From: Candidatus Poribacteria bacterium
Lineage (GTDB): Bacteria > Poribacteria > WGA-4E > WGA-3G
Length of the DNA stretch: 64,000 bases
Direction of reading: 5' to 3'
Assembly (NCBI GenBank): GCA_965215265.1
Contig: OZ244048.1
Location: forward strand, 4,480,001-4,544,000
Shown: in pieces, positions 26,137-63,204 of the stretch
Numbering within the stretch: the first letter of the stretch is position 1
Layout: each line of letters opens with the position of its first letter
The notes under the pieces: model-generated
What the model saw: the letters and a program-made list of their open reading frames with translations, nothing else
Told to the model about the DNA's origin: nothing
Database searches by the model: none
Made by a program: the position numbers and the translations under genes

Positions 26137-26312
26137 ACAACATCAGCCGTTGACGTGCTGCAATATACGAAGAAAACCTCTGGTGAGAAAGGATTCACCC
26201 CGCTGGCGGGGGAAGGGAAGTTCTCCCCGCGGAGGGGATGAATTCCGATCCTTCTTTTTTGAAAAAGTATCATCACAACATCAGCCGTTGACGTGCTGCA
26301 GTATACGAAAAG
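26137..26312. repeat. Modular palindromic repeat cluster
   Basis: CAACATCAGCCGTTGACGTGCTGCA(A/G)TATACGAA twice around a GGGAAGTTCTCCCCGC hairpin. Confidence 0.8.
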
Positions 26313-26353
26313 CGGAATTGTTCTTCCGGCACTCACATTATGCGGGAAAAAAT

Positions 26354-27388
26354 ATGAACCAAAAATTTCGTATCGGGGTCACGCGTGACTTCCTAAAACC
26401 CGACGGTACCTCTGATTTTGAAAACATCGGTGCACCATACTTCGACGAGGCAGGATTGCATTGGGAATACCTCGCAGAATTAGCCCCTACCTTGACCAAG
26501 CAGCAAGTACACGATTATGACGCGCTCTTAGTACTCGGTGGCGGCATTACTGCTGAGACACTCACGGATGTAACTCGCTTAACAATCATCGCCAGATTTG
26601 GAGTCGGTTATGATAAAGTTGACGTGCAAGCATGCACCGAAAACGGGGTGATTTTGACAATCGCACCTGATGGCGTTCGCCGTCCGGTTGCCACCTCCGT
26701 TATAACTTTTATACTATCTTTGAGTCATCTGTTACTAATAAAAGACAAACTCACCCGCACGGGCGGATGGGCTAAAGCGATGGGGCACATGGGGATGGGA
26801 CTTGTCGGACGCACTCTCGGACTTGTCGGAGTGGGCAACATCGGCGCAGAGGTTTTCAAATTGGCACAACCGTTTGGAATGCGGCATATCGCCTTCGATC
26901 CTTACGTCAGTCCTGCGGAAGCAAAAGAAGTTGGCGTAGAATTAGTAGATCTGGATAGTTTGATGCGAACCGCTGACTTTGTCTGTATCTGCTGCCCCTT
27001 GAATGAAGAGACGCGAGGACTCATTGATGAAAGACGCATCGGACTTATGAAGTCTACTGCTTACTTGATTAACACCGCGCGCGGTCCCATCGTTAAACAA
27101 CAGGCACTTACAAAAGCACTGCGCGACCGGTCCATCCAAGGTGCGGGTCTGGATGTCTTCGAGGAAGAACCCATTCATCAGGAAGACCCGCTGTTGGAAT
27201 TAGACAACGTCATCCTTACACCTCACAGCCTCTGCTGGACTGATGAGTGTTTCCAACGCATTAGCCAGAGTGCATGTCAAAATATTGCACGGGTCGCTCG
27301 GGGACAGATACCTTCTTGGATTGTCAATGCTGACGTTGTGGACAGTCCAAAACTGCACCAAAAATTAGAACAGTGGCGAACAACTTAA
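26354..27388 (+). CDS. D-isomer 2-hydroxyacid dehydrogenase (SerA-like)
   Basis: GVGYD, GVGNIG, INTARG, LDVFEEEP and TPH motifs; upstream part of the ORF is repeat-derived, so start set at MNQKF. Confidence 0.9.
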   Translation: MNQKFRIGVTRDFLKPDGTSDFENIGAPYFDEAGLHWEYLAELAPTLTKQQVHDYDALLVLGGGITAETLTDVTRLTIIARFGVGYDKVDVQACTENGVILTIAPDGVRRPVATSVITFILSLSHLLLIKDKLTRTGGWAKAMGHMGMGLVGRTLGLVGVGNIGAEVFKLAQPFGMRHIAFDPYVSPAEAKEVGVELVDLDSLMRTADFVCICCPLNEETRGLIDERRIGLMKSTAYLINTARGPIVKQQALTKALRDRSIQGAGLDVFEEEPIHQEDPLLELDNVILTPHSLCWTDECFQRISQSACQNIARVARGQIPSWIVNADVVDSPKLHQKLEQWRTT

Positions 27389-27399
27389 CTATAAGATGA

Positions 27400-27491
27400 G
27401 CAGTATACGAAAAAAAACAGTGGCGAGATAGGTTTTCTTTATCTCTCCTTTCAGGAGAGATAAGAATACTTTTTACTCGCCACCCACAGGG
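27400..27491. repeat. Hairpin repeat (GTGGCGAGATAGG…CTCGCCACCCAC)
   Basis: Same family as 41520-41705 and 53449-53515. Confidence 0.8.
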
Positions 27492-27507
27492 AAAGGAGAA
27501 AGAAGAA

Positions 27508-28647
27508 CTGGCACACGCATATACACCCGGACTTAAAGTGACAGAACAGATGACGATTCGGAAAGAGAGATGTCTCCCCTTACAAGGCGAAGTTCTCGTA
27601 CAAGTCGGAGACATCGTAACAGCCGAAGATGTCATCGCAAAAACCGATTTGCCCGGTAACGTTCAACTGCTAAATATTGCGAATCTGCTCAGTATTCCGC
27701 CTGCTGACATCGCAGAATACATGGTAAAACCTGTCGGCGAAACCGTCGCGAAAGATGAGATTATCGCCATGACAAAAGGGCTCTTCGGACTTTTCAAATC
27801 GCAGGCACGTTCACCAATTGATGGTACCATTGAAGCAGTATCCGATGTCACTGGACAGGCGATCTTGCGTGAACCGCCCATTCCAGTTGAGGTGATGGCA
27901 CATATAGATGGCACCATCATTGAAACGGACGCACAGGAGGGTGCTACTGTGGAAACTTACGGTACCTATATTCAAGGTATCTTCGGAGTCGGTGGCGAAA
28001 CGATAGGGCAACTTATTAGTGCGGTTGGTTCACCAGACGATACTTTGACAGATGCGCAAATACAATCCGCGCATCGGCACGCTATTTTAGTCGGTGGTTC
28101 CCTAGTCACCACATCTGCAATTCACGCTGCAATTCAGCACGGTGTTAAAGGCATCATCGCCGGCGGTATTGATGATGCCGACCTGCGGGAACTCCTCGGA
28201 TATGAGCTCGGTGTCGCTATTACAGGTTCTGAAAATATCGGGCTCACGCTGGTTATCACTGAAGGGTTCGGTGACATCGCAATGGCGGAGCAGACCTTCG
28301 CGCTCCTAAAGGCGCGAGAAGGCATGAAAACTTCTATCAACGGAGCAACACAGATTCGAGCCGGCGTTGTCAGACCAGAGATTCTCATTCCATTGCCACC
28401 GGATACTCGTGAAGGAACCTCAGAACCAACCCGCATTGCATCTACCGAAGGCATTTTGGAAATTGGGACACCTGTGCGGATTATTCGCGAACCCTACTTC
28501 GGAAGATTAGGCAATGTCACGGAACTACCGGTAGCACTTCAAAAATTGGAAACAGAAGCAGACGTTCGGGTGTTGCAAGTTAAGCTCGCAGAAGGACAAA
28601 CGATTACCTTGCCGCGTGCGAATGTTGAAACAATTTTTCGTATATAG
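27508..28647 (+). CDS. Conserved hypothetical protein (barrel-sandwich hybrid and KOW-like segments)
   Basis: Frame extends to CTG-AHAYTPGLKV after an AAAGGAG RBS; RSPIDGTI and IRAGVVRPE motifs. Confidence 0.75.
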   Translation: MAHAYTPGLKVTEQMTIRKERCLPLQGEVLVQVGDIVTAEDVIAKTDLPGNVQLLNIANLLSIPPADIAEYMVKPVGETVAKDEIIAMTKGLFGLFKSQARSPIDGTIEAVSDVTGQAILREPPIPVEVMAHIDGTIIETDAQEGATVETYGTYIQGIFGVGGETIGQLISAVGSPDDTLTDAQIQSAHRHAILVGGSLVTTSAIHAAIQHGVKGIIAGGIDDADLRELLGYELGVAITGSENIGLTLVITEGFGDIAMAEQTFALLKAREGMKTSINGATQIRAGVVRPEILIPLPPDTREGTSEPTRIASTEGILEIGTPVRIIREPYFGRLGNVTELPVALQKLETEADVRVLQVKLAEGQTITLPRANVETIFRI

Positions 28648-28980
28648 GAGCCCAATACGGATTGATGTGGCAGGATAGGTTTTCTTTTTCTGTCCATGAG
28701 AAAAGATTACCTTTTACCTGCCATCTATAGATATTGATAACCTTAGCATAAATCTCGTTCTTCTGTATACAGAAGCCCAATAAAGGCTGCTGCTATGTTC
28801 TTGTATATCTCCGTACCATTAACGTCTATGTAATGATAGCTCGTGTGTAAATCTCGTCGGAGCCTTCCGATGTTTAGATTTAAAAGACTATACCGAGTTA
28901 ACCTCCGCCGAGATGTACATCGGATTTAACAATACATAACCCTTGATGGGGCTGAAAGATACAAAAAACGGAGATATACA
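28634..28980. repeat. Modular palindromic repeat cluster
   Basis: TTTTCGTATA…, AAATCTCGTCGGAG and GGCAGGATAGG hairpin modules. Confidence 0.85.
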
Positions 28981-29953
28981 GATAGTGCTACATTCGACAT
29001 CGAAAGTCACAGTCGTTGGAAGTTTGAACGCCGACCTGGTTATTCAAGCCGACCGTCACCCATTCAAAGGGGAAACCCTCATCGGCGATGGATTTGACAT
29101 CTTCACCGGAGGAAAAGGGTTTAATCAAGCAACTGCAGCGGCGAGACTTGGAGCCGACATCACCCTTATCGGTAGCGTTGGTACAGATCTTTTCGGAGAT
29201 ATGCTCCTCGCAGCGACTGCTGCTGAGCAGATGAATACCCGAATCCGACGGGTGGAAGAAGGCACCGGTGTGGCAAGTATCGTCATTGAGCCAGATGGGG
29301 ACAATAGCATCATCGTTGTACCACGCGCCAACATGGCACTAACAATAGCAGATATAAACGCAGCGACAGACACTATTGCTGAATCAGATGTCCTGCTTTT
29401 ACAATTAGAGACACCGATTACGGCTTCTGAATCCGCTGCACAAATTGCAAAGGCGAACGGCACAACCGTGCTACTCAATCCAGCACCCGCACAACCTTTG
29501 CCGGACAGCCTACTCACAAACGTTGATATTATCATTCCAAACCAATCTGAAACAGAACTGTTAACAGGGATGCAGGCGAACACACTTAAAGAGGCGTGCC
29601 GCGCTGCACAAGCACTCATCACCCGATTAGATGATGCTGCACCCGCCGCTATTGTGTTGACGCTTGGAGCGCATGGTGCCTTACTGATGACACCCACAAT
29701 GTCCGAAACCATTGATGCCCTCGCAGTTGATGCAGTCGATACCACAGGTGCGGGCGATGCTTTCTGCGGTGCATTGGCCACGGCACTCGCACGGGGGGAA
29801 CAGATACGCGAAGCTGTCGCTTACGCGAATGCAGCTGGCGCAGCAGCTGTTACCGTACTTGGAGCAACTCCCTCAATGCCGACATCCGAAAAAATTCAAC
29901 AGCTATTGGCTGATTCCAAGAAACGTAGCATAGAAACAGGAGAAAAACCATGA
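28943..29953 (+). CDS. rbsK: Ribokinase
   Basis: VVGSLNAD, GGKGFNQA, LLQLE, NPAPA, DTTGAGDAF; start uncertain because the 5' end is repeat-derived. Confidence 0.9.
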   Translation: MMGLKDTKNGDIQIVLHSTSKVTVVGSLNADLVIQADRHPFKGETLIGDGFDIFTGGKGFNQATAAARLGADITLIGSVGTDLFGDMLLAATAAEQMNTRIRRVEEGTGVASIVIEPDGDNSIIVVPRANMALTIADINAATDTIAESDVLLLQLETPITASESAAQIAKANGTTVLLNPAPAQPLPDSLLTNVDIIIPNQSETELLTGMQANTLKEACRAAQALITRLDDAAPAAIVLTLGAHGALLMTPTMSETIDALAVDAVDTTGAGDAFCGALATALARGEQIREAVAYANAAGAAAVTVLGATPSMPTSEKIQQLLADSKKRSIETGEKP

Positions 29954-32841: not shown

Positions 32842-32847
32842 ACTCAT

Positions 32848-33270
32848 CTTTTTGTATATCTTGGTACCATCACCGCTTATGTATTGTTTAATCGTGTGTA
32901 AATCTCGTCGGAGGTTAACTAGGTAATGTCTTTAAAATCTAATTTTTGTATATCTCCGTACCATCAAAGGTTATGATTTTACGCTCTTGTGTTGGCAGGT
33001 TCGGTTTTCCTAGTGGGTGGCAGGGTAAAAGGTAGTGATAGCGTGTCCTTCAGGACACGCTATCACTACCTATCCTGCCACTTTATCTCTCCTTTAGGAA
33101 AGATAAGAATACCTTATCCTGCCAATCTATAGATAAATCTCGTCGGAGATTCCTTAGGCATAGCATAAAGCGGCTCTGGCGAGATTTGTAAAGTTATTAA
33201 CATAGCAGCAGCCTTTATTGGGCTCCTGTAGACAAAAGATCTTTATCGTGCTAAAATATACTAAAAATTG
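32848..33270. repeat. Modular palindromic repeat cluster
   Basis: Includes GGTAGTGATAGCGTGTCCTTCAGGACACGCTATCACTACC hairpin and arm modules. Confidence 0.85.
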
Positions 33271-33281
33271 AGGACACCCGT

Positions 33282-33917
33282 TTGAACGAGCTGACCTATT
33301 ATCTTGGATGCCACGTTGAGCACTATGCACAAGTGGCATCCACCAATGATATCGCACTTGAGCGCGGAAAAGCAGGGGCGGAAGAAGGCACCCTCATCGT
33401 TGCTGAACACCAAACCGCTGGCAGAGGCAGATACGGTAGGAAATGGGAGACACCCCCCGGCAAATGCCTGCTTGTCTCTGTTATTCTCAGGCATCGACTT
33501 AGGCATGACGAGGTTCCACTCCCTAACCTCATCGGTGCTATCGGCATTGCGAAGGCAATTCATACCACTACCGGACTGGAGGCCCGGATAAAAGCCCCTA
33601 ATGATGTGAAAATTAAAAGAAAAAAGGTAGCGGGTGTTTTAACCGAACTCGCATACGACCGGCGGAACCAGCCGTTTTTCGTACTAGGTTTTGGTGTCAA
33701 TGTGAATAACTTTTTAGAGGATTTTCCACCGGAACTACAGAGTACGGCTACCTCTCTGCGCATAGCACTAAATACTAACGTCGACATCTGCAGAAACAGA
33801 CTATTAAAAGTGATACTCCATCAAATTGAGAATACCTATCGGCATCTTAAGACAGGCAAGCCGAATTTAATCATGGCACAGTTTAACGAATTTTCGTCTA
33901 CAGGAGCACAACAATGA
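33282..33917 (+). CDS. birA: Biotin--protein ligase (catalytic domain only)
   Basis: STND, QTAGRGRYGRKW, KAPND, KVAGVL and GFGVNV motifs; C-terminus repeat-derived. Confidence 0.88.
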   Translation: MNELTYYLGCHVEHYAQVASTNDIALERGKAGAEEGTLIVAEHQTAGRGRYGRKWETPPGKCLLVSVILRHRLRHDEVPLPNLIGAIGIAKAIHTTTGLEARIKAPNDVKIKRKKVAGVLTELAYDRRNQPFFVLGFGVNVNNFLEDFPPELQSTATSLRIALNTNVDICRNRLLKVILHQIENTYRHLKTGKPNLIMAQFNEFSSTGAQQ

Positions 33918-34100
33918 TTTTTTGTATATCTCCGTTTTTTGTATATCTCCGTGCCATCAAAGGTTATGATTTTGCGCTCCTGTGTAAATCTCGTCGGAGG
34001 TTAACTAGGTATAGTCTTTAAAATGATAACATCAAACGGCAGCCTTGTTACGGGCTCCTGTAGACAAAAGACCTTTATAGGGCTGAAATATACGAAAAAA
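33891..34100. repeat. Modular palindromic repeat cluster
   Basis: TTTTGTATATCTCCGT twice, AAATCTCGTCGGAG, GCTGAAATATACGAAAA. Confidence 0.85.
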
Positions 34101-34102
34101 CG

Positions 34103-34543
34103 ATGAAAGTTCTCATTAGCGCTTGTCTTATCGGCGTTCACTGCCGTTACGACGGCGGCCACAGCCTAAACGAAAATGTCATAAAACGGAGTCAACTCGA
34201 TGAGTTAATTCCGGTCTGTCCAGAGGAGCTGGGCGGCCTACCGACACCGCGTCCGCCGGCTGAAATTGTTGGTGGAGACGGGAACGACGTACTAAACGGT
34301 AAAGCAAAAGTCATGACAGCTGATGGAACGGACCTAACGGAAATGTTTGTACAAGGTGCGTACCGGGCCCTACGCACAGCACAATCGTACGGAGCAACGC
34401 ATGTTATCCTGAAGGCGAGGAGCCCGTCTTGTGGGTGTGGGCAGGTTTACGACGGCTCATTCTCCGGTACAGTCACCACGGGCGACGGCGTAACCGCGGC
34501 ACTCCTGAAACAGCATGGGTTTGAGGTTTTTTGTATACGGTAG
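34103..34543 (+). CDS. DUF523 / 2-thiouracil desulfurase family protein
   Basis: SACLIG-CRYDG, CPEELGGLPTPR and SPSCG motifs. Confidence 0.88.
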   Translation: MKVLISACLIGVHCRYDGGHSLNENVIKRSQLDELIPVCPEELGGLPTPRPPAEIVGGDGNDVLNGKAKVMTADGTDLTEMFVQGAYRALRTAQSYGATHVILKARSPSCGCGQVYDGSFSGTVTTGDGVTAALLKQHGFEVFCIR

Positions 34544-34758
34544 CACAAATTTTTGTATATTTCAGCCCCATCAAGGGTTATGTATTGTTAAATCCGATGT
34601 ACATCTCGTCGGAGACTCCTTAGGTTTTGACTTTAAAGACGATACCTAGAGCGGCTCTGGCGAGATTTGTAAGGGTTTTTACATTGCAGCAGCCTTTATG
34701 GGGCTGCAGTAGACGAAAAAGCAGCAGCCTTGTATCGGGCACCTGTATACGAAAAAAT
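34526..34758. repeat. Full-length ~170-bp MITE-like imperfect palindrome plus fragments
   Basis: TTTTGTATATTTCAGCCCCATCAAGGG…CTCGTCGGAG…CTCTGGCGAGATTT…CCTTTATGGGGCTGCAGTAGACGAAAA (34551-34720). Confidence 0.85.
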
Positions 34759-35532: not shown

Positions 35533-35544
35533 AGTCTTTCCTCT

Positions 35545-35812
35545 ATTTTAGCCCAATACCAATCGATGTTTTTAGCAACCTTGCATAAAGTGATTGAAGA
35601 ATCATAACCTAGAATGGCTCCCAGTGGGTGGCAGGTAAAAGGTATTCTTTTTCTATCCATGAGAAAAGATTACCTATCCTGCCACTGGCGAGATTTACAT
35701 ACGAGTATTTATTACATAGACGTTGATGGTACGGAGATATACGAAAAAAACGAGATTTACATCGGAATTGTAGTACATCACTTTTGATGGTACTACAGTA
35801 TACGAAAAGAAG
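35545..35812. repeat. Modular palindromic repeat cluster
   Basis: CCCAGTGGGTGGCAGG hairpin and reverse arms (…GGAGATATACGAAAA). Confidence 0.8.
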
Positions 35813-36833: not shown

Positions 36834-37200
36834 ATTTTTGTATGGTGCAGCCCCTCAACGGCTGATGTTGTGTCAATGACTGTGTTGGCAGGATAGGTAG
36901 TCTATCCGTGTCCTTCAGGTGGGGAAGTTCTCCCCGCAAGCGGGGATGAATCCCCAACGCTAGTGCTACCTTTTACCTGCCAATCTATAGATAAATCTCG
37001 TCGCCCGCCCACCCAAATCCTTTGATGTTTAGATTCATTACATCGAACGGCTCAGACGAGATTTGTAAAGGTTTTATTTAGCATAGCAGCCGCCTTTATT
37101 GGGCTCTTGTATACAGAAGAACGAGATTTGTGCAAGGTTGCTAAAAACATCGATTGGTATTGGGCTGAAATATACAAGAAAACGGAGATATACAAAAAAT
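36834..37200. repeat. Modular palindromic repeat cluster
   Basis: Nested hairpins and arm modules of the same family. Confidence 0.85.
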
Positions 37201-37204
37201 CTGT

Positions 37205-37633
37205 TTACATTTTCAGGGTCATCTGTTGTTCGATAAAGTGCCGTTCTGATTTCTTTGTCGGCTGAATTCTCCACTCAGTCGGCAAGCGGACGAGAGTGTT
37301 GATACTATCCGGGTTCTCAAAATACGCATCGTCTATCTGCCAGAATTGGAGACGTGCGTAACTTTGCCGGTTATGCTCAAAACGTCCCATCGTTTCCGCT
37401 TGCTGTCGCATACCCGCACTAACAGGCTCAACGGTAATAAAGATGCCGATCTCTGCACCGTTTTCGGACATGACTTGGCAGAAGGCACGCACCTGCGTCA
37501 TCGAAGGCCTGCCAGTCTTAACTTCGGCGAGAATACGTGCATTCGTTTCTTTCATGAGCTGTGGATTCCATAAAGTTGCATGTCCGACACCGTCATACCC
37601 ACCATCGCCCTTTCGTCTACTGCAGCACGTCAC
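37205..37633 (-). CDS. Mrr-like PD-(D/E)xK restriction endonuclease domain, detached C-terminal part of the MTase gene
   Basis: GDGGYDG…AEVK motif; same frame as the upstream MTase; its GTG start lies inside a repeat. Confidence 0.65.
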   Translation of the reverse strand: MTCCSRRKGDGGYDGVGHATLWNPQLMKETNARILAEVKTGRPSMTQVRAFCQVMSENGAEIGIFITVEPVSAGMRQQAETMGRFEHNRQSYARLQFWQIDDAYFENPDSINTLVRLPTEWRIQPTKKSERHFIEQQMTLKM

Positions 37634-37709
37634 AAGTTGCTGTTTTGCTAAAACATTTACAAAACTCGTCTGAGGTTCCCTATGTTATGATTCAAAACAC
37701 CCTTTCGTC
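37608..37709. repeat. Repeat element inserted in the MTase-nuclease gene
   Basis: TTTCGTCTACTGCAGCACGTC…AAAACTCGTCTGAG; CCCTTTCGTC at both ends. Confidence 0.85.
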
Positions 37710-39013: not shown

Positions 39014-39333
39014 TTGTATTCTCCTAGTAATTCATCACTTACTATATGCCGCGGAAGTGCAAGGCGCTTCGAATTTTCAATATCGCCACTCCAGCGGGGC
39101 CATCTGTTTATAGAAGCCTTAAACTCCAGATTGGTTTGCATACCACTTAATATTACCCGTACTGAGCCCACTCGCCACAATATCGGGCCGCCCATCTGCA
39201 TTCATGTCTACTATCTGCATCTGCCCAACCCCCAAGCCGCCATCGTCAATTTTTCGTATATCTCCGTACCATCAACGCTTAGGTAATAATAACTCGTGTG
39301 TAAATCTCGTCGGAGATGACTTAGGTTTAGTCT

Positions 39334-40130
39334 TTAAAAATCTAACGTCTCTTTACCCCACCGGTTCTGCGCCAGATTCTCTGGACGGTAGAGATGCAAG
39401 CTGGTGCCTTCCCCATTATAGCCACAGATGACCTCTAACACACCGTCCGCATCAACGTCAACTGCCGCAATAGAATGTCCACGGTTGAGTGTATCATCAA
39501 TAGGGTAGCGCGTCCAAGCGGATGAACGCAAATCGCCAGTGACTTTATACCAGACGAGGTTGTTCCCGTGCCATGGCTCAATTGCCAGAATTTCGTTGAC
39601 ACCGTCGCCATCAATATCCGCAGCGTAGGTATCGCTACACGCCTTATCGCTAATCACCCACTTGCGCCAGGGTTGTGTCATCGGTTCGGTAGGGGCTCAT
39701 ACCAGACAAGCCCTTCGGTGCAGCTAATTAGGACATCGTCCCGCCCATCCATATCCACATCGTTGATGCTCAGTCCGTGGTTGATATGCAGTCTATCGTC
39801 AAGCAGATGGGCGTGCCATGTTCCGTCTCGCGGTTCATCCGGAAGTTAGTAACACCAAAGGGAACCGGGACTGTGCCATTCACCCGGTTTTCCATCTTCC
39901 CCACGGATCGATGCGACGATGAGGCCTGGTTTGTGCGACGCGTCTTTGGTGAAATTACCGAGCGCAATACGGTGAATGAACGGCACATGAGCGATGTGAT
40001 GGCTAGTCCAATTCTCACCTGATTGAGCCGGTGCTTCCAGCCAATGTAGGTAACCCCCTGCAGCGTTAACACCGCGGTTGAAACCGCTCCCGACGATGAG
40101 CTCGGGTATCCCATTATCGGTGAGGTCGCC
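39334..40130 (-). pseudogene. FG-GAP/VCBS repeat protein pseudogene
   Basis: GDLTDNG, DVDMDGRDD, DIDGDGVNE repeats; internal TAA near 39850, frameshift near 39692; both ends abut repeats. Confidence 0.75.
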
Positions 40131-40465
40131 CGCCCACCCAAATCCTTTTTCTGTATATAGGAGTCCAATGCTAGTTGCTGCTATTTACAACCCTGTACAA
40201 ATCTCGTTTTTTTTGTATACAGGAGCCCAATAAAGGTCTTTCGTCTACAAGAGCACAACACAACAGATGTAATGAACACCTTAGCACAAATCTCGTTCTT
40301 TCGTCTACAGGAGCACAACACAATAGATGTAATGAACACCTTAGCACAAATCTCGTCTGTGCCGTTTGATGTTTTGATTTTAAAGACTATACCTAGTTAA
40401 CCTCTGGCGAGATTTAGACACGAACCATCAATACCTAAGCGTTGATGGTACGGAGATATATAAGA
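40125..40465. repeat. Repeat cluster including a 60-bp tandem duplication
   Basis: Unit CTTTCGTCTACARGAGCACAACACAAYAGATGTAATGAACACCTTAGCACAAATCTCGT at 40238 and 40298. Confidence 0.85.
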
Positions 40466-41464: not shown

Positions 41465-41705
41465 CTTTTTGTATCCTAGCCCAATAACGCGTTTTTTGGC
41501 GTGTTGGTACTGGATACGAAACTCCCCAGTGGGTGGCAGGCAAAAGGTATTCCCAATGGGTGGCGAGTAAAAGGGAAGGGAAGTTCTCCCCGCAAGCGGG
41601 GAGGAATCCCCTTTCTTCTCTGTCCTGAAGGACAGAGAAAGATACCTATCTCGCCACTTATCTCTCCTGAAAGGAGAGATAAAGAAAACCTATCCTGCCA
41701 CTTTC
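41465..41705. repeat. Hairpin repeat cluster
   Basis: CCCAGTGGGTGGCAGG, GGGAAGTTCTCCCCGCAAGCGGG and CTCTGTCCTGAAGGACAGAG modules. Confidence 0.85.
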
Positions 41706-42269: not shown

Positions 42270-42815
42270 ATTTTCGTATACTGCAGCACGTCAAACATTG
42301 CTGCTATGCGCGCCCTAGCACAAATCTCGTCTTTTCGTATATCTCCGTTAAGAATTGTCCCCGCACGCGGGGTGAATTCTTAACCATCAACGCTTATGCT
42401 TTGATGACTTGTTTGTAAATCTCGTCGGAGCCTCCTGATGTTTAGATTCATAACATCTTTTCGTATCTTTCAGCCCCATCAAGGGCTATGTTTTTGATAA
42501 TCCTTTTTTCGTATATAGGAGCCCTACAACGCATCAAGCGTTGTCAACCACTGGGCACATCTCGTCGGAGGTTTTTTCTGTATACAGGAGCCCGTTAAAG
42601 GCTGTCTATAGATTGGCAAGATAAGGTTGAGAGATAGGTAGTTCACGAGAAGGGATTCCTCCGCGCAAGCGGGGATGAATTCCCATCCTTCCCTTCTCTT
42701 CAAGGTTTCGTAAACTTACCTTTTACTCTCAACTTCGTAATCCGCCTGGGCGGTGATGGAAGAAAGAAACCCCTTGAAAAGGGCGTTCTTGTCGCGAGAA
42801 TACGAAATCTCGTCT
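42270..42815. repeat. Modular palindromic repeat cluster
   Basis: Several arm and hairpin modules between ilvB and ilvN. Confidence 0.8.
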
Positions 42816-44609: not shown

Positions 44610-44815
44610 AATTTAGTATATTTCAGCACAACCCAGACGGATGTTATATACACACTAGCACAAACCTCGCCACTTCTCTCTCCTGAAAGGAGAGAGAAAG
44701 AATACCTATCCTGCCACTCGAGGACAGACAAAGAAAACCGAACCCCGCCACGAGATTTACACAGTCATTAACAAAACATAAAGCGTGATGGTACGGAGAT
44801 ATACCAAAAAAAGAA
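44610..44815. repeat. Repeat cluster between the T-box and ilvB
   Basis: Arm and hairpin modules of the same family. Confidence 0.8.
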
Positions 44816-44823: not shown

Positions 44824-45110
44824 AAAAAAGCCCTACTCATTCCAAACTTGGAGACGAGAAGGACTCAACTAACCTTTCCGTGGTACCACTCCAATTCTCT
44901 TTACCGAGGCAAAATTTCTCAGTTAAGAGCACTCTAACGGATGCAATAACGGGCATCACACCGGCCAACCCTACTGCTTTCGCGAGACGAAAATTCAGAT
45001 TAGCAGCTCCAGGGCGACCTTCAGTCATGGTAACTTGAGGAGACCTCTCAGCCTATGAGTCTCCCGCTCTGGCAAGCCCGGCCGACCTACTCCTCCCCTT
45101 CAACGCTTTT
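44824..45110 (-). promoter_or_regulatory. T-box riboswitch with terminator upstream of ilvBNC
   Basis: Stem I hallmarks (GCGTTGAAGGGGAGGAGTA…AGAG…GCTGAGA…CCCTGGAGC), T-box GGAGTGGTACCACGG pairing with TCGTCTCC, then hairpin + T6. Confidence 0.88.
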
Positions 45111-45568
45111 ATCGTGATAACGCTATTTAATTGTTAGTTATTGATTTATTATCTATGGTATGCATAAATGTGTCTACGATAGACAATAAATCTATTTATT
45201 TAGGAGGTTAATGGTTCACGTTGTTTTGTAAACGCCAAGTTGCGCAAAAATGTGTTGATTGACGTTCGTGAAAAATATATACATCATATTTTAAGTATAC
45301 TACATTTCAAGAGAAATGTCAAAAAAAAACAGTATCGGGTCTTTACACGCGTTTATGAAAACAGATCAAGCCACATTTTTTTTGCGTGAGGTTGACGATA
45401 TTGGAGCCGTCAACATCCATGCAATCACTATCTTGGTCCGAAGCGAATACGAGTTGCGTCCCTGCCGGGTTGCTTTCACGAGCCGTGCTTGAGAAAGCAG
45501 CTCTAACGGCTTGATGTCTCTTTTTTAAGTTTGAATTATCTATTTTAGGAGTGAACCGGTTCTAAAGT

Positions 45569-53448: not shown

Positions 53449-53515
53449 GCCCAGTGGGTGGCAGGAAAAGGTAATCTTCTCTCATGGACAGAGAAAGAAT
53501 ACCGAACCTGCCGCT
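53449..53515. repeat. Hairpin repeat
   Basis: CCCAGTGGGTGGCAGGAAAAGGTAATCTTCTC…GAATACCGAACCTGCCGC. Confidence 0.9.
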
Positions 53516-53554
53516 CAGACAAAAAATTTAGCACTACACAAACAGAGGCACAAG

Positions 53555-55600
53555 ATGAAGATAAACTCAACAGAAGAGACAATACACCGGCTCATATTTA
53601 GTTTATCCGAGCTAGAACAGTTGGGCCAGACGCTTATCTCTGGACACAGTAATTTTAATGTCTCAAGTAAAACCTATCTCCGTATTGCTCTCGGAACACT
53701 CCAAGTTCCACGCGGTGCTATATTGCTATACCATCCGTCGGATAATCAACTCATCCTTGCTGCTGCCCAGTGGGTGGCAGGAAAAGGTAATCTTCTCTGT
53801 CCTGAAGGACAGAGAAAGAATACCGAACCTGCCGCATCAGGTGCATTAAACGCAACCTCAGTTCCGCCTATTGGTATTGAACCGGACGAGGTGCACGCGT
53901 TGTTAAAATATCCTGTTATTGGACTCGGCGCGCCCCCTGAAGAACTTGCTGACTTCTTCGCGCGGCATACAGAACTTTGTCTCACCCTCGGTGCTCAACA
54001 TTGGGTACCGCTAAAAATACACGAGGAATTCCTCGGTATTCTTAGCTTAGGAAAGTTTCTCCAGCCAGAAGTGACTATAGGACTTAGACAGAACACTTCA
54101 ATGCACGAAGGCATTCACTCAGAACATATAACCGATGCAACTCTATTAGGAACATACGAAAAACTCATTACGATTCTTGCGCATCAAATCTCCATCGCTA
54201 TTGCCTATTCTCATATGGTAGAAGGCATCCAAGGCGAAAAATTCCGACTGTTCATGCTTGCAGAAAGTGCACCCCAGATCTGCCAACTCTTACAACCGGA
54301 AGAGGCCGCTGAACAGGTAGTACATCAAGCTGTCGCCTTATTAGATGCAAACGCCGGCGGACTCTTGCTCCTGGACGCAGATAAACGGAATCTCTCTTGG
54401 AAGTATACGTTTCCAGATAACAGTTCCGCTCACTCTGAGGCAGAAATACCGATAATCGGAGAACGAATGGAAGCCACCTCCAAAGCGAATCAAAGCACAG
54501 TATCTTCTGCCGAAATGCTCGCCCGGGTTGTCAAAGAAGGTAAAACGTTGCATTGGCAAACTGACATAGATGGATGCCTCGGAACTAAGAATTTGATGGC
54601 TGTCCCGATACTCGGACGCGATGAAGACGGTCTTGGCGTGCTAGTCGTCGGAGATAAGGAAGAACGCGGTGGCAGGGTCACGGCTTTCAACGATGAAGAC
54701 GCAATCCTACTGGATTCCTTCGCAAAGCAGGGAGGCGTTGCCATAGAAAATGCGCGCCTTCACCAAGAAGCACTTGAAGCCCGTCAATTGCAGGCAGAAA
54801 TGGAGGAAGCTCAAAAAATACAAGAAAACCTCATCCCGGATACACTTCCCGAAATACCCGGATACGAAGTTGCAGGGCATTATGAACCGCGTGGGCCTGT
54901 AGGTGGAGACTACTTCGATTGTCTCAAACTTCCTGCTGGTGGATGGGGGCTTGCCATCGCGGATGTCTCAGGAAAAGGCATGCAAGCAGCGTTGCTTATG
55001 GCAACGCTGCGGGCCGGACTCCTCTCTGAATTGTTCAGAGACACTCCGCTGACAACACAAGAAAAAACGACACAACATCACCGGATACATACAAGAATCC
55101 CCACATACGAAATAATTGAAATGGCATATACACTCAATGCCTTACTTTATGCTAGCGGCACCCCGGAAAAGTACGCAACCTTCTTCTATAGCTACCTTAA
55201 CCCAGAAACAGATGTTCTAACCACACTCAATGCCGGACACAATCCGCCCCTCATAGTCAGAGGCGACGGAACCTGCGCATGGCTCAGCGAGGACGAAGGC
55301 GGCGTTCCACTCGGTATGTTCCCCAACGATATGGTGACAGAGATTGCTGAGTATGAAGCTGGACAAGTCCAGCTGGAAAAAGGCGATACCGTCATTTTTT
55401 ATACCGACGGCGTCACCGAAACCGTCAACATTGAAGATGAATTCTACGACGAAAAACGTCTACAACAGGTTGTCAAAGACTGTAATCCTGCAACAGCCAC
55501 CGATATATGCCAGAGGATTTACGAAGCCGTTACCGCGTTTCAGGGTGAAGCAGACCAGTTTGATGATTTGACACTACTTGTTTTAAGGAAAAAACCGTGA
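53555..55600 (+). CDS. GAF-domain PP2C/SpoIIE phosphatase (RsbU-like)
   Basis: VGGDYFD, ADVSGKG, NAGHNPP, YTDGVTE and DDLT motifs; two GAF-like regions. Confidence 0.92.
   Translation: MKINSTEETIHRLIFSLSELEQLGQTLISGHSNFNVSSKTYLRIALGTLQVPRGAILLYHPSDNQLILAAAQWVAGKGNLLCPEGQRKNTEPAASGALNATSVPPIGIEPDEVHALLKYPVIGLGAPPEELADFFARHTELCLTLGAQHWVPLKIHEEFLGILSLGKFLQPEVTIGLRQNTSMHEGIHSEHITDATLLGTYEKLITILAHQISIAIAYSHMVEGIQGEKFRLFMLAESAPQICQLLQPEEAAEQVVHQAVALLDANAGGLLLLDADKRNLSWKYTFPDNSSAHSEAEIPIIGERMEATSKANQSTVSSAEMLARVVKEGKTLHWQTDIDGCLGTKNLMAVPILGRDEDGLGVLVVGDKEERGGRVTAFNDEDAILLDSFAKQGGVAIENARLHQEALEARQLQAEMEEAQKIQENLIPDTLPEIPGYEVAGHYEPRGPVGGDYFDCLKLPAGGWGLAIADVSGKGMQAALLMATLRAGLLSELFRDTPLTTQEKTTQHHRIHTRIPTYEIIEMAYTLNALLYASGTPEKYATFFYSYLNPETDVLTTLNAGHNPPLIVRGDGTCAWLSEDEGGVPLGMFPNDMVTEIAEYEAGQVQLEKGDTVIFYTDGVTETVNIEDEFYDEKRLQQVVKDCNPATATDICQRIYEAVTAFQGEADQFDDLTLLVLRKKP
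53768..53833 (+). repeat. 66-bp hairpin repeat inserted in frame in the phosphatase
   Basis: Near-identical to 53449-53515; encodes QWVAGKGNLLCPEGQRKNTEPA. Confidence 0.9.
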
Positions 55601-56547
55601 GAGATAAACCCAGATTCTTAAATCCAGCAATCCTAGCCAGAATCGGAAATCTTGAATTCATTGCAAAATTGGTAGTAGAAGGCTTTATCTCAGGCCTTCA
55701 TAAAAGCCCCTATCACGGATTTAGCGTTGAATTCTCACAATACCGGCAATACATGCCCGGCGACGATACCAAACATATTGATTGGAAAGCTTACGGCCGG
55801 ACGGATAGATACTACATTAAACAGTTTGAAGAAGAAACCAATCTCAACTGCTACCTACTCTTAGATACGAGCCGCTCCATGATGTACCCAATACCCGAAG
55901 ACAAGACTACCGAAAACGATACATCAACACAAGCGAACGATGCTATACGAAAAATAACAAAGTTACAATATGCCAACTTTCTGATAGCCTCCTTGGCGTA
56001 CTTCATGGCAAAACAACGAGATGCCATCGGGTTCGCTTATTTCGATGACATACTTCACGAGTATCTGCCCGCACGAAGCACTGCAACACACTTGCACGCC
56101 ATCTTATTAAAACTGGAGACACTCGAAACCACAAAAAGCACCCGCCTAGGTACACCGCTCCATCAGGTTGCCGAACGACTCACAAAACGCGGATTAGTCA
56201 TCTTTATCTCCGACCTCTACGATGAAAACCGAGACGAACTCCTCGCAGGACTAGAACACCTTCGCTATGATGGGCATGAAGTTATCGTTTTCCATATCCT
56301 TGCACAGGAAGAACTGAACTTTGATTATAAACGGCCCATCAGATTTGTTGACTCAGAAACCGATGCGGAAATAATCACAACCCCGCAAGCCATTCAAGCG
56401 AATTATCTGCAACATTTCAATGCATTTATTGAAACCTACGGAGTTGCCATGCGCCAAGCCGATATAGATTATAATCTGATAAACACCTCAACGCCAATCG
56501 ATTTCGCGCTCTCATCCTACTTAGCCAAACGGCAAGGTTTTTTATAA
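55597..56547 (+). CDS. DUF58 protein (MoxR/vWA-associated)
   Basis: GLHKSP-GFSVEF, YMPGDD, IDWK and LLDTSRSM motifs. Confidence 0.9.
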   Translation: MRDKPRFLNPAILARIGNLEFIAKLVVEGFISGLHKSPYHGFSVEFSQYRQYMPGDDTKHIDWKAYGRTDRYYIKQFEEETNLNCYLLLDTSRSMMYPIPEDKTTENDTSTQANDAIRKITKLQYANFLIASLAYFMAKQRDAIGFAYFDDILHEYLPARSTATHLHAILLKLETLETTKSTRLGTPLHQVAERLTKRGLVIFISDLYDENRDELLAGLEHLRYDGHEVIVFHILAQEELNFDYKRPIRFVDSETDAEIITTPQAIQANYLQHFNAFIETYGVAMRQADIDYNLINTSTPIDFALSSYLAKRQGFL

Positions 56548-56548
56548 T

Positions 56549-56778
56549 CTTTCGTCTACTGCAGCACGTCACCGATGGATTTTATGAACACCCACGCACA
56601 AATCTCGTGGCAGATTAGGTATTCTTTGTTTGTCCATGAGACAAGACAACCTTATACCTGCCATCTATAGATCGGAGTTTTCCGATGTTATGAATCAAAA
56701 CAGAGAGCGGCTCAGACGAGTTTTGTAAATGTTTTATCAAAACATCGATGGTAACGTGCTAAAATATACAAAAAAAGG
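56549..56778. repeat. Modular palindromic repeat cluster
   Basis: TTTCGTCTACTGCAGCAC…GTGCTAAAATATACAAAA. Confidence 0.85.
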
Positions 56779-56781
56779 AAA

Positions 56782-58917: not shown

Positions 58918-58921
58918 TAGA

Positions 58922-59010
58922 TTTCGTCTACTGCAGCACGTTTTGTAAATGTTTTATCAAAACATCGATGGTAATGTGCTAAAATATACAAAAAAACGGA
59001 GATATACGAA
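58922..59010. repeat. Short repeat cluster
   Basis: TTTCGTCTACTGCAGCACG…GTGCTAAAATATACAAAAAAACGGAGATATACG. Confidence 0.8.
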
Positions 59011-59077
59011 ATTGGTTCCCATATTAGATAGAACGAGCGCGAAAGCGCCACCAACATTAGTGCAAGGGCGACCTTAC

Positions 59078-59983
59078 TTGAGTCATACACAACAAGTCCC
59101 TAAAATTGCATCTGATAAGCAAGTACAGTTCTTTGTTAAGAACGGGTATCTCGTTGTTCCAGGTCTGCTCTCCGATGAAGAAATTGCGGAATTAAGGCAA
59201 GATACAACTACACTCGCCAGGGGTGGGCATCCCTGCGACACCCTCAAACCGGTGCCAGATGAAATAAGTGACGAAGAAGCAATTAGCCGCATTCTCTGTA
59301 TACATCAACCACACTTCGTCAGTCCTATCATTGAGAAATACATCAAACACCCCAAAATCTGTGGTATTTTAAGCCAGATAACCGCTGCGCACCTCCCACA
59401 CTGGGATGGCAGTGTCAAGTGTATGCAGTCAATGCTTTTCGTCAAACCACCCGAATTTCAAGGGCAAGCATGGCATCAGGATGAAATCTATATACCGACG
59501 CGCGACCGTTCGCTAATCGGCGCGTGGATTGCCATGGATAACGCGACCGTTGAAAACGGCTGCTTGTGGGTCCTCCCCGGTTCCCACCGGCCCGGGTACC
59601 TCTACCCACAAAAACCGCACGAAAATCCAGACGAATTCGATTTTGCAGAAGAGAGCTTCGGATTCGATGAAAAGGATGAAGTACCTGTAGAGGTGACAAC
59701 CGGAACACTTGTTTTTTTCAATGGATACTTGCTCCATCGCTCTCGTAAGAATCGTGGGCACACCTATCGACGGGTTCTGGTAAACCATTACTGTAACGCC
59801 TGGTCGTTATTACCCTGGTCGATACGCGAGGATGAACGGCCCGCCAGCGCAGACAGGCGATGCATCATTCCAGTTTCTGGTGTCGACCCCTATGCTTGGA
59901 AGGGATACGATGCAGCACCCAAAAACGTCTCATTGCGAACCTGCAAAACCGTTCAGCAACTGGAGGCATCAAATGACAGTTGA
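59078..59983 (+). CDS. PhyH family Fe/2OG oxygenase
   Basis: WHQDE, NGCLWVLPGSH, LHRS; start uncertain because the upstream ORF part is repeat-derived. Confidence 0.88.
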   Translation: MSHTQQVPKIASDKQVQFFVKNGYLVVPGLLSDEEIAELRQDTTTLARGGHPCDTLKPVPDEISDEEAISRILCIHQPHFVSPIIEKYIKHPKICGILSQITAAHLPHWDGSVKCMQSMLFVKPPEFQGQAWHQDEIYIPTRDRSLIGAWIAMDNATVENGCLWVLPGSHRPGYLYPQKPHENPDEFDFAEESFGFDEKDEVPVEVTTGTLVFFNGYLLHRSRKNRGHTYRRVLVNHYCNAWSLLPWSIREDERPASADRRCIIPVSGVDPYAWKGYDAAPKNVSLRTCKTVQQLEASNDS

Positions 59984-60176
59984 ACACCGAGAGGAATTGA
60001 AACAAACGTTGGCACTGATGTTTGAACGGATTCAATCCGGCGCGGATATCACAGAACAGCTCCTCCGCATCAACACACTGCATTGCCTCATCTCACCAAC
60101 AGCTCCTCGCATGCTCGACCACTATCTTGAGCGCAAGAGCTATACAAAAGCGTTAGAACTCTTGATGCAGATGTAA
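59973..60176 (+). CDS. Small hypothetical protein
   Basis: GGAGG RBS + ATG overlapping the PhyH stop; LDHYLERKSYTKAL. Confidence 0.65.
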   Translation: MTVEHREELKQTLALMFERIQSGADITEQLLRINTLHCLISPTAPRMLDHYLERKSYTKALELLMQM

Positions 60177-60346
60177 TTTTGTCTACTGCAGCACGTTAAC
60201 GATGATGTAATGTTTACCCTTGTACAAAATTCGTCGGAGCCGTTATATATTTTGACTCAAAAGACTATACCTAAGAAGCCTCCGACGAGATTTACATCAG
60301 ATGTAACACAACATAACCGTTGATGGTACGGAGATATACGAAAAAC
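60177..60346. repeat. Full-length palindromic element
   Basis: TTTTGTCTAC…TTCGTCGGAG…CTCCGACGAG…GATATACGAAAA. Confidence 0.85.
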
Positions 60347-60352
60347 GAAAGA

Positions 60353-61111
60353 ATGAAAAGAATTGATGGACGCCAGCCAGATGAGTTGCGCCCGGTTAAA
60401 ATCAAGCGCAACTATATTAAGCACGCCGAAGGATCTGTTTTTATCGCAATTGGAGATACCCAAATAATATGCACCGCTTCTGTTGAAGACCAGCAGCCCA
60501 GTTTCATGCGTCAACAACGTATCCGCAAAAGAGGTTGGGTAACCGCAGAATACTCCATGCTGCCACGCTCCACCGCAGAACGGATGCAACGCGAGATATC
60601 TCGTGGACACCTCGCAGGCAGAACCCAGGAAATTCAACGGCTCATCGGACGTGCATTGCGCACCGCCGTCGATCTTTACGCTTTAGAAGAAAAAACAATT
60701 TGGATCGACTGTGATGTCATTCAGGCGGACGGTGGTACGCGCACTGCTGCTATTACAGGGGCCTTCATCGCACTTTGGGATGCCGGACAATACCTGCTTC
60801 AACGTCAGAAAATCAAAAACTTCCCCATCCGGGAGAATATAGCCGCAACGAGCGTCGGAATTATCAAAGGGCAATCCCTATTAGATCTCTGTTACGCCGA
60901 AGACTCTACTGCCGATGTCGATATGAATGTTGTTATGACAGGGACAGGCAAATTTATAGAGATACAAGGGACTGCTGAAGTGCAGCCTTTTTCGCGTGAA
61001 GAATCCGACAAACTTTTGGAACTCGCTACCGGGGGCATCCAGCAACTTATCCGATTGCAAAACAAAATGATGCTCGAAAACTTGGAGACGCTTGTATGGC
61101 CAGAGAAGTAA
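60353..61111 (+). CDS. rph: Ribonuclease PH
   Basis: [31 protein letters not shown] and EIQGTAE motifs. Confidence 0.97.
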
Positions 61112-61483
61112 TTCGTCTACTGCAGCACATCGCAAGTTGCTGTAATGTTATACCCCTTACAAATCTCGTTCTTTGTATACTGCAGCACAGCAACACCGGA
61201 CGGGGTGATAACGCTTGCACAAATCTCGTTCTTTCGTCTACAGGAGCACAACACAACAGATGTAATGAACACCCACGCACAAATCTCGTCTGAGCCATTT
61301 TAGGTTTAGATTCAAACAAAAACATCAAGAGGCTCCGACGAGATTTACACAGTCATTGACAATACATCAGGCGTTATCGGGCTGAAATATACAAAAAATT
61401 GTGTTCATAAAATCCATCGGTGACGTGCTGCAGTAGACGAAAACGTGCTAAAGGATACAAAACGTGCTAAAAGATACGAAAAG
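61112..61483. repeat. Repeat cluster with three tandem ~60-bp arms
   Basis: TT(C/T)GT(C/A)TAC(T/A)G(C/G)AGCAC-N31/32-AAATCTCGT three times, then inverted arms. Confidence 0.85.
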
Positions 61484-62096
61484 ACTTGTATTGGCGACAC
61501 GGAACCACGGGAAAGTTAGAGAATTGATAGCTCTTGTCAAAAACGCTCTATATGAGGAAACAGCCTCGGCGCACTGTTCAATTCAAATTCTAACGCTGCA
61601 GGACTTCCTTGATGCCCCGGATGTTATAGAGGATGGCGAGACCTACGTGGAAAACGCAATCAAGAAAGCGAAAGTCATCGCTGACTATACCGGACACCTT
61701 ACTCTTGCCGATGATGCAGGGTTAGAGGTAGACGCACTCAACGGTGCCCCAGGTGTCAGATCCAAACGCTGGGCATCCGAAGAGACACGACTGACAAAAC
61801 TACTAAAAGCGTTAGAATCGAAGACTCAGAGGAGTGCCCGATTTGTCACGGCTATTGCACTCGTTGCCCCGAATTCAGAACCAGAAGTGGTAATTGGCGT
61901 TTGTGAAGGCAGTATTGCACATGCACCGGCCGGCAAGGGCGGTTTTGGATACGATCCGGTATTTGTCCCTGAAGGACATGACAAGACTTTTGCTGAATTG
62001 GGAGATGACATCAAAAATCAGATCAGCCATAGGGCTAAAGCACTGCAGCTTGCACTCCCATTATTGTTAAAAAAAGTGGTTTTTAGTATACAGTAG
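61464..62096 (+). CDS. rdgB: Non-canonical purine NTP pyrophosphatase (HAM1)
   Basis: ATRNHGK, ENAIKKA, GFGYDPVF and ISHR motifs; follows rph. Confidence 0.93.
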   Translation: MLKDTKRLVLATRNHGKVRELIALVKNALYEETASAHCSIQILTLQDFLDAPDVIEDGETYVENAIKKAKVIADYTGHLTLADDAGLEVDALNGAPGVRSKRWASEETRLTKLLKALESKTQRSARFVTAIALVAPNSEPEVVIGVCEGSIAHAPAGKGGFGYDPVFVPEGHDKTFAELGDDIKNQISHRAKALQLALPLLLKKVVFSIQ

Positions 62097-62446
62097 CACA
62101 ACAAAGGCGTGTGTTGTGATAAATCCTTTACAAATCTCGTTCTTTCGTCTACAGGAGCCCAATGACGCTCTATGTTTTGTAAAAATCTGTGAAAATCTCG
62201 TCTGAGCCGTCTGGTGTTTTGACTTTAAAGACATTACCTAGAGCGTCTCCGACGAGTTTTATCTATAGATTGGCAGGTAAAAGGTAGCACTAGCGTGTCC
62301 TGAAGGACACGCATAGACTACCTATCCTCCCAACACAGTCATTGACAATGCATAATGCGTTATCGGGCTGAAATATACAAAAAAAACGAGATTTACATCA
62401 GAACCATCAAAACATAGACCGTAATGGTACGGAGATATACAAAAAA
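62080..62446. repeat. Modular palindromic repeat cluster
   Basis: Arms and hairpins, ending GGTACGGAGATATACAAAAAA directly at the efp ATG. Confidence 0.85.
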
Positions 62447-63004
62447 ATGGCAGCTCTTAATGATTTAAAGAATGGATTAGTTATCCGACTCAACGATACA
62501 ATCTACACGATTGTAGATTGTCAACATGTCAAACCGGGTAAAGGCGGTGCGTTCGCCCGGACGAAAATTAAGCGCGTAAGCGATGGTGCTGTGCTAGACC
62601 GGACCTTCCGAACAAACGAGACTGTTGAAACCGTCCGACTTCTTGACCACGAAATGCAATATCTATACAGTGACGGCGACGCATTCTACTTTATGGACAA
62701 CGAAACTTTTGAACAGTATATCCTCAGCGCCGACCTCATCGGCGACGGATTGAAATTCTTAAAAGAAGGCGAGAGCGTTACCGTCAAAATGGAAGGAACC
62801 ATGCCAATAGCACTTGAATTGCCGACGTTCGTCGTACTTAAAATCGTCGAGACTGATCCCGGATTACGTGGGGATACAGTAAGCGGCGGCTCCAAACGCG
62901 CTACACTTGAAACCGGCGCCGTCGTTAACGTACCGCTCTTCGTTCAAAACGAAACTGACATCAAAGTTGACACACGCACTGGAAAATATGTCGAAAGGGT
63001 TTAG
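62447..63004 (+). CDS. efp: Elongation factor P
   Basis: HVKPGKGGAF, PGLRGDT and KVDTRTGKYVER motifs. Confidence 0.97.
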   Translation: MAALNDLKNGLVIRLNDTIYTIVDCQHVKPGKGGAFARTKIKRVSDGAVLDRTFRTNETVETVRLLDHEMQYLYSDGDAFYFMDNETFEQYILSADLIGDGLKFLKEGESVTVKMEGTMPIALELPTFVVLKIVETDPGLRGDTVSGGSKRATLETGAVVNVPLFVQNETDIKVDTRTGKYVERV

Positions 63005-63070
63005 AAATGAACAGAAAGAGAAAAAGTCTGGCAGAGGCGGCACCCCCTACGCAAGCACGCGATAAACCTT

Positions 63071-63204
63071 ATTTCGTCTACTGCAGCACGTTTTCGCCTA
63101 CAGTAGCACATCAACGCCCGATGTTCTGTTAGAGAAACATAAGGCGTTGACGTGCTGAAATATACAAAAAAACATCAGCCGTTGGAGGGCTGAAATATAC
63201 AAAA
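63071..63204. repeat. Repeat cluster upstream of accB
   Basis: TTTCGTCTACTGCAGCACG…GCTGAAATATACAAAA twice. Confidence 0.8.

Follow-up and report, generated by a model that had tools for sequence, protein, structure and literature searches.

Three families of repeats, nested in each other, occupy the gaps between genes in the window, a stretch of 64,000 nucleotides from a Candidatus Poribacteria chromosome (C1:4480001-4544000, where C1 is contig OZ244048.1; genome of 4.83 Mb in one contig). Family A, a one-directional mosaic repeat of 60-90 bases, has ~900 copies in gaps between genes, and it is accompanied and interrupted by two kinds of hairpin, families B and C. The original prediction had placed all of these modules in one combinatorial family; each module that it named was found in its place, but they belong to three families inserting into each other. 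The best efp matches are all from Poribacteria, and the scanned window genes encode ordinary metabolism and housekeeping functions.

The half-unit profile of family A (89-column model) returned 899 matches genome-wide and 48 in the window, every one of the latter within 26135-63205; merged with family B, the window matches form 23 loci (approximately 20 intergenic regions were first proposed). A genome-wide search with an arm profile built from the window copies yielded 777 matches at E<1e-3, and the reversed genome gave 0. Relaxing the threshold to E<0.05 placed 873 arms in 400 loci, most commonly as forward arms followed by reverse arms, with a single arm at 160 of the loci. Short-read contigs from two studies (runs X5 and X8), neither of which supplied the top-ranked holder of the sequence, span the unit at 60177-60346 with 0 and 2 differences, respectively; this unit is therefore not an assembly artifact, a possibility that the original prediction had raised. 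Among the 43 and 22 open reading frames (ORFs) scanned in the window, no transposase family was matched, as anticipated for transposases and REP-associated tyrosine transposases (RAYTs; REP, repetitive extragenic palindrome). The repeats also matched no RNA family, the Rfam search returning T-box only, and a literature search of partial coverage brought up neither these repeats in Poribacteria nor repeats tailed by a terminase-small-subunit (TerS) gene; the original prediction, too, recognized no named family in them.

Structure and insertion of family A

The basic unit of family A is a polar half-unit: its head is fixed and bears a T-run, and behind it follow a variable body of 47 columns, a conserved core and a variable tail. 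Polarity is apparent from the profile matches, 818 of 899 of which begin at the head, while 152 stop just past the tail motif and 484 reach the end of the model. The T-run is mostly 4-6 long (687 heads), and of 831 arm matches examined, 523 are anchored at both ends, 420 of these with exactly 47 columns between head and tail motif. The ~170-bp imperfect palindromes, originally taken as the full unit, do exist, but they consist of two unlike half-units joined tail to tail. The arms paired in a full unit differ by 21.9 mismatches compared with 19.1 +/- 0.9 in random pairs (40 pairs), and being more unlike than chance they are not homogenized terminal repeats; 30 of the 40 units pair a young arm of the type A class with a non-A arm, and one pairs two type-A arms. 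As single-stranded DNA, the unit at 34551-34720 folds end to end (z -4.9, 0/200 shuffles equal), whereas the weak fold of the unit at 60177-60346 (z -2.0, 11/200 shuffles as good) indicates that the palindromes are very imperfect.

The arms are recombinant mosaics, which bears out the earlier description of the copies as assemblies of alternative blocks. They are built of blocks of 3-7 bases with a few common alleles per block, and 463 of the 523 anchored arms are distinct. All four combinations of alleles occur at least 5 times in 496 of 630 pairs of variable columns, and across 370 distinct arms of 47 columns linkage drops with distance (r -0.127, permutation p 0.01). When the 107 arms that are at least 6 positions away from their nearest neighbor are fitted with two parents, 4.5 mismatches remain, versus 5.6 +/- 0.1 when the column order is shuffled. 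Tandem neighbors are likewise unlike each other (distances 0-27), and A and T columns are both strongly conserved. Columns 22 and 42 pair in 90% of the 370 arms, using all six pair types; the adjoining columns form no helix, the signal mostly separates type A from the rest, and this isolated pair is the only covariation detected when an RNA or single-stranded DNA helix was sought in the arms. A coding origin of the arm was rejected, the best frame scoring 0.35 versus 0.29 in column-shuffled arms and no frame being clearly more open. Heads start with a CGTC tag in two relatives (G001 and G004) and in some arms of this genome, where it is one of several head alleles.

Insertion of family A leaves no target duplication, as assessed in 91 full units against shuffled pairs, and removes 0-30 flanking bases. 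Comparison with empty paralogues in this genome puts the losses between 2 and about 30 bases, with individual cases of 2, about 6 and about 13. In an IS982-like remnant, the reading frame indicates clean insertion of a full unit. In the IS605 tnpB gene of G001, a 92-bp half-unit is cleanly inserted in four copies versus two that are empty, the four filled copies probably representing one event. Clean empty and filled sites, the comparison suggested by the original prediction, are thus known from three species (this genome, G001 and, for family C hairpins, G004), in all cases without duplication. A further multi-copy non-coding element of this genome acts as a target for family A.

The repeats also reshape gene starts. 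The outer arm of a locus turns its head toward a facing gene start in 310 of 363 cases and toward a gene end in 238 of 385. The start codon of a long frame lies 2-15 bases from 93 of 513 outer heads, compared with 5% of random intergenic positions, and 29 of these 93 pairs share one offset; stop codons near outer heads are barely enriched (49/513 versus 6.6%). Within a UvrA-like gene, the inserts are read as protein and replace variable loops, some of which hold other repeats in relatives.

The gene attached to family A tails

Many lone family A tails run into the 3' end of one gene family. Its sole full copy, outside the window at C1:3557480-3558202, encodes 240 amino acids (aa) and is directly followed by a half-unit. 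The protein has two helix-turn-helix (HTH) domains, and its best match is to terminase small subunits (PHROG, E 1e-11). The predicted fold resembles the same subunits and has viral fold matches; the PDB matches are to TerS, all with E > 0.09, and a single-sequence fold was uninformative (pLDDT 39). Homologues precede large terminases at loci L258 and L259 of two other genomes. Judged from sequence and predicted fold, the linked gene is terminase-small-subunit-like, with HTH and oligomerization folds and homologues upstream of the large subunit (TerL). A transposase or HUH nuclease flanked by the same ends, which the original prediction had proposed to look for, was not found among the families covered, and the one linked gene is TerS-like rather than a transposase. 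It stands alone: this genome contains no large terminase, neither a large terminase nor a prophage adjoins the gene, and no viral contig in IMG/VR matches it.

A search for tails of this gene recovered the full copy and 47 truncated ends (55 rows, 7 dropped as arm-internal or low-complexity matches), each beside an arm or a B hairpin inserted there, including one at window 35587. The ends are nested and 5'-truncated, and silent-site differences dominate among them. One subtype accounts for 31 pieces of 3-39 codons, measured on a reference 39 codons long. Among 12 distinct pieces of at least 8 codons, the proportion of differing synonymous sites (pS) is 0.53 and that of non-synonymous sites (pN) 0.10, the latter lowered because piece length was set by amino-acid match; none of 66 pairs is identical, and two-step synonymous arginine changes are plain. 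The pieces therefore derive from many functional alleles, not from the resident copy. Type A arms make up 36 of 51 TerS-tailed arms versus 155 of 492 overall, and in TerS-tailed copies the non-coding arm looks, by eye, far less diverged than the adjoining silent sites.

Families B and C and the loci of the window

Family B starts with a GTAG-related tag and forms a long hairpin. A pattern search gave 61 matches: 28 of subtype B1, defined by one short end palindrome, 17 of subtype B2, defined by the other, and 16 with neither. Many B1 copies are located outside family A; one with a clean empty paralogue was inserted between C and T, and most of the copies listed lie between these two bases. The B2 flanks are A before in 21 of 22 complete copies and C after in 18 of 22. 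Family C, found at 27 places (6 near family A), resembles type I-E CRISPR repeats; a CRISPR origin was rejected, both arrays of this genome having other repeats. In G004, a hairpin related to C occurs 222 times in 800 kb and is present in some IS607 copies, while others are empty, with 2 or 0 bases lost. Families B and C thus insert precisely at a short target, without duplication. Their inner loops resemble the hairpins at IS605 ends of G001, whose tnpB contains one B-like copy; the B profile had no match in 1.39 Mb of other loci, IS605 ends included.

Family B moved recently. Runs X6 and X7 come from one study and differ at 5 of 1275 bases; in their locus contigs, the match to the window stops at 60294 and is followed by 14 loose letters. 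The loose end in X7, seen in two contigs in full agreement, reads as a B2 end, which places a B2 insertion at 60294/60295 with one junction seen. The same junction is empty in X5, X8 and the window genome, so that within the species B has either been gained or been lost precisely.

The two CRISPR arrays of this genome, of 169 and 64 repeats, lie at C1:524245-535484 and 1463324-1468035. This chromosome has matches to two of the spacers, near 623045-623081 and 3910679, and none of the matches of the 229 spacers outside the arrays falls at the TerS-like gene.

The repeat loci of the window are listed below in window positions, with the strand where one was assigned.

26135-26311 (-): two truncated A arms with family C hairpins between them
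27420-27490: lone family B hairpin
28635-28967: A arm broken by a B2 hairpin (28667-28725) and followed by a short arm and a full 170-bp unit (about 28799-28968)
32849-33237: A half-units with nested B hairpins (33009-33132)
33936-34098: A half-unit and short heads, the final head abutting a start codon at 34103
34551-34720: full 170-bp unit of two unlike half-units, tail to tail
35587-35608 (+): TerS-like gene remnant, the last six codons and stop, attached to an A half-unit tail
35620-35808: B1 hairpin (35620-35685) within an A core, then two A arms
36835-37177: A arm with a nested B2 (36886-36990) that itself holds a C hairpin (at 36931), then more arms
37611-37697 (+): lone A half-unit
39251-39338 (+): lone type-A half-unit
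40149-40460: tandem arms and a full unit
41525-41702: stacked nested B hairpins and a C hairpin (at 41587)
42271-42583 (+): A arms in tandem, one of them having a C hairpin (at 42358)
44612-44809: A arms with a nested B (44673-44719)
53450-53512 (+): lone B1 hairpin
56550-56774: A unit with B2 (56607-56665) inside its core
58942-58994 (-): truncated arm and short heads
60177-60346: full unit upstream of rph; junction 60294/60295 empty here, in X5 and in X8, B2 end in X7
61112-61482: rph-rdgB gap with tandem arms, a full unit and short heads; the rdgB frame (from 61464) has its first codons within a head
62081-62445: rdgB-efp gap with arms and a nested B2 (62263-62332), the final head abutting the efp start codon at 62447
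63091-63205: truncated arms, the final head abutting the accB frame at 63205

The B profile also matches at window 53766-53833, inside a 681-aa GAF/SpoIIE frame, possibly as an in-frame insertion. In the efp region of other Poribacteria (L008-L033), the same gaps are filled with heptamer runs and with REP-like repeats of their own.

Distribution, candidate mechanisms and related systems

Homologues of family A with other alleles were detected in 2 of 158 relatives, G001 and G004, whose arms follow the same design with other alleles and lengths. The core motif was counted 363 times here, 421 times in G004 and 44 times in G001, and none of the remaining 156 genomes of the order has it more than 10 times. 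Tail-to-tail cores are present in 2 of 176 genomes. A metagenome scan gave 4 matches, none of them an arm, and viral scans for the arm pattern gave 41 single pattern matches. G001 and G004 are rich in IS605/IS607 insertion sequences (ISs), which this genome lacks except for one broken tnpA; Y1 transposase matches number 34 and 3 in the two relatives with family A, and TnpB matches 108 and 66 in G001 and G004. The repeats that flank the RAYT-like loci in G002, G004 and G007 are different ones, and a short Y1 gene of G004 (L191) is bordered by tandem hairpin repeats of its own that resemble none of A, B and C.

Mobile-element enzymes were sought in this genome. No IS110 was detected, DUF559 is represented by one domain within a 1571-aa frame, and the only reverse transcriptase (RT) belongs to a diversity-generating retroelement (DGR). 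One intact resolvase frame is not enclosed by arms, and the other is the broken IS607; a single tyrosine recombinase is broken, and the DDE_Tnp_1 matches comprise scraps and one spurious match on a host gene, the IS982/IS4-like scraps being broken as well. No cognate IS with the same ends as family A was found among the families covered, GIY-YIG, four-helix-bundle, IS3, IS21, IS630 and relaxase families not having been searched. Multi-copy methylase genes and a multi-copy family that we take to be Rpn-like are not specifically beside repeats. Intact tyrosine recombinases (PF00589) were found in none of the near-complete genomes of this organism, G001 and G004, with 14/14 controls positive; XerC/D may be missing or diverged.

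We tentatively favor the view that family A consists of non-autonomous elements copied from a fixed end by HUH/Y1-type single-strand chemistry acting in trans. Its observed footing is polarity, no duplication, small losses, stacking, unlike-arm pairing, mosaicism, nesting, the recent change in B and donor-derived gene tails. A gene-less polar repeat with one fixed and one variable end would be copied from the fixed end over a variable distance, a one-ended cut-and-join enzyme of the HUH/Y1 type supplying the reaction. The donors, at least of type-A arms, may have been many diverged TerS-bearing elements (phages or satellites) with the half-unit just behind the gene, and recombination among donors and copies would produce the block mosaics. 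Only insertions whose tail-side loss points into the gap would be tolerated, which could explain why heads end against start codons; some of these heads may by now provide a ribosome-binding-like stretch. As for families B and C, they would be small hairpin elements in their own right, inserted precisely and likely moved by chemistry of the same kind, and the enzyme, without trace in this assembly, is presumed lost, strain-specific or borne by visiting elements. The proposal draws on analogy with TnpA-REP and with IS801 fragments. TnpA-REP of E. coli and Stenotrophomonas cuts at the dinucleotide where B1 sits, and the E. coli enzyme recombines and stacks BIME units (BIME, bacterial interspersed mosaic element) in vitro into tandem, varied arrays (PMC3333891, PMC8266576). 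One-ended IS801 fragments all retain the right end and terminate at 3 of 18 candidate sites (PMC3189936).

Several observations weigh against this proposal, above all that no such enzyme is present in the assembly and none was seen bounded by these repeats. This genome has no Y1 transposase by Pfam or by a profile from 10 relatives' proteins, and no TnpB, yet B is polymorphic among conspecific strains; the search for an IS91-type Y2 enzyme gave no match, with the control also silent. Of 20 Y1 loci inspected, none has family A ends, A and B being seen inside IS605 copies and not bounding them. The TerS truncation points are spread out (3-39 codons), in contrast to the few sites of IS801, and 229 long tails contain no other recurrent extension beyond local tandems, degenerate arms and larger duplications. 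The A head has no constant stem (even the most frequent predicted pair is limited to 74 of 370 arms), and family A, binned at 400 kb along the chromosome, has no clear preference for one strand. Finally, G001 and G004 have arms but no TerS-like gene, nor was TerS detected in 173 G004 tails (800 of 5500 kb), which limits the evidence for such donors to this genome.

Erosion of whole elements is a less likely explanation. A TerS-bearing phage or satellite with unlike ends and its own recombinase would have entered many AT-rich sites, and internal deletions would have left solo ends, TerS-tailed right ends and 170-bp joins of left and right ends. The pairing of type-A with non-A arms in full units, the excess of type A among TerS-tailed arms, and the mutually different TerS pieces are all as expected from it. 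However, no left-end cargo repeats among the 229 long tails, no transposase-like gene lies between arms that face inward (3 candidates), and the tyrosine recombinase matches amount to the broken one here and none in G001 or G004; tandem stacks, short heads, and families B and C are left unexplained.

A direct role for phage packaging machinery in seeding and spreading the repeat is doubtful. Here the lone, double-HTH small terminase would recognize the fixed-geometry arm, the large terminase of a helper phage would cut at the head, and diverse elements would drop end fragments, the freed ends being captured at variable length. If so, the dropped fragments would recombine to mosaics, take over gene starts and become targets for hairpin elements that are still active. 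The only repeat-linked gene is indeed TerS-like, solitary and endowed with a second HTH, and the arm of TerS-tailed copies looks less diverged than the silent sites beside it. Against this, the genome has no large terminase, the TerS-like gene is missing from G001, G004 and IMG/VR, families B and C are unexplained, and packaging cuts are not known to make 60-250-bp insertions.

Retroposition is improbable. Complementary DNA anchored at its 3' end in an A-run and truncated at its 5' end, with template jumps making tandems and mosaics and the resident DGR RT writing, would account for the fixed A-run end, the spread of 5' truncation and the unlike tandem neighbors, and an intact RT with an Avd-like neighbor is present. 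But the run is only 4-6 long, the strong conservation of both A and T columns excludes adenine-specific mutagenesis, and precise two-ended B insertions do not fit. The DGR-like cassette (C1:1416737-1420944) comprises an Avd-like gene, the RT and two related upstream genes.

A classical miniature inverted-repeat transposable element (MITE) of a lost DDE transposon is very improbable, the junction tests having largely refuted it. In unit size (about 170 bp), inverted ends and position beside genes, the repeat recalls listed MITEs (PMC3184786). The likeness to MITEs, REPINs (paired REPs) and BIMEs drawn in the original prediction stands for the mosaic, enzyme-less, pervasive character and fails for the classical MITE, given the lack of target duplication, the frequency of single-arm loci, the unlike paired arms and the presence of only broken IS982/IS4-like scraps. 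Least probable of all is an IS607 derivative moved by a serine transposase: the broken tnpA shares 70-72% identity with the copies in G004, the repeats at IS607 ends are similar to the head and tail motifs of the arm, and IS607 makes no duplication (PMC6188088), but its ends score only 3-6 bits against the arm profile, family A junctions have no GG crossover, the core common across species is absent from IS607 ends, and G001 has family A without any resolvase-family match.

Among described systems, REP/BIME/REPIN repeats with RAYT share the hundreds of intergenic mosaic clusters, tandem amplification, strain variation and, for B1, the dinucleotide cut by TnpA-REP (PMC3333891, PMC8266576). Family A units are longer and polar with fixed internal spacing, some have TerS tails, no RAYT is present here, and none was seen flanked by A or B in relatives. 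CGTC REPs, described as a family without known origin or enzyme, likewise lack a dedicated transposase, lie inside DNA-repair genes and share their tag with heads of G001, G004 and some arms of this genome (PMC3733652); family A has no short constant stem behind the tag. Correia, ERIC and RUP MITEs and Neisseria REP2 are similar in size, gene-adjacent position, ribosome-binding-like stretch and in-frame fusions (PMC3184786), but differ from family A in duplication, half-unit mobility and unlike mosaic arms. Like the nested one-ended fragments of IS801/IS91, which all keep the end behind the gene (PMC3189936), family A tails have a fixed end behind the TerS-like gene and a variable other end. 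Unlike IS801/IS91, the gene is TerS-like and not Y2, the ends are spread rather than at few tetranucleotides, and the donor alleles are many and diverged. Gene-less derivatives of IS200/IS605 are known as palindrome-associated transposable elements (PATEs). Families B and C resemble these as small hairpins with fixed ends and no duplication, but no complete element bounded by B or C ends turned up, and this genome has no TnpA. Phage satellites of the Staphylococcus aureus pathogenicity island (SaPI) and phage-inducible chromosomal island (PICI) types carry an orphan TerS without large subunit, as does this genome; here, by contrast, no integrase or replication genes lie beside it, and dozens of truncated ends are scattered with the repeat.

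For many bacterial intergenic repeat families, neither origin nor enzyme has been traced. In the present case the parent leaves a trace in nested gene ends from many donors, clean empty and filled sites in three species and strain polymorphism, and both origin and chemistry can be tested with the relatives' Y1 transposases, the TerS-like protein and defined substrates.

Two other features of the window deserve mention: a T-box leader at 44847-45112 (-), upstream of ilv genes, and the region 7800-19550, in which blocks of 120-300 nt are repeated along with four paralogous ORFs that match no Pfam or NCBIfam entry.

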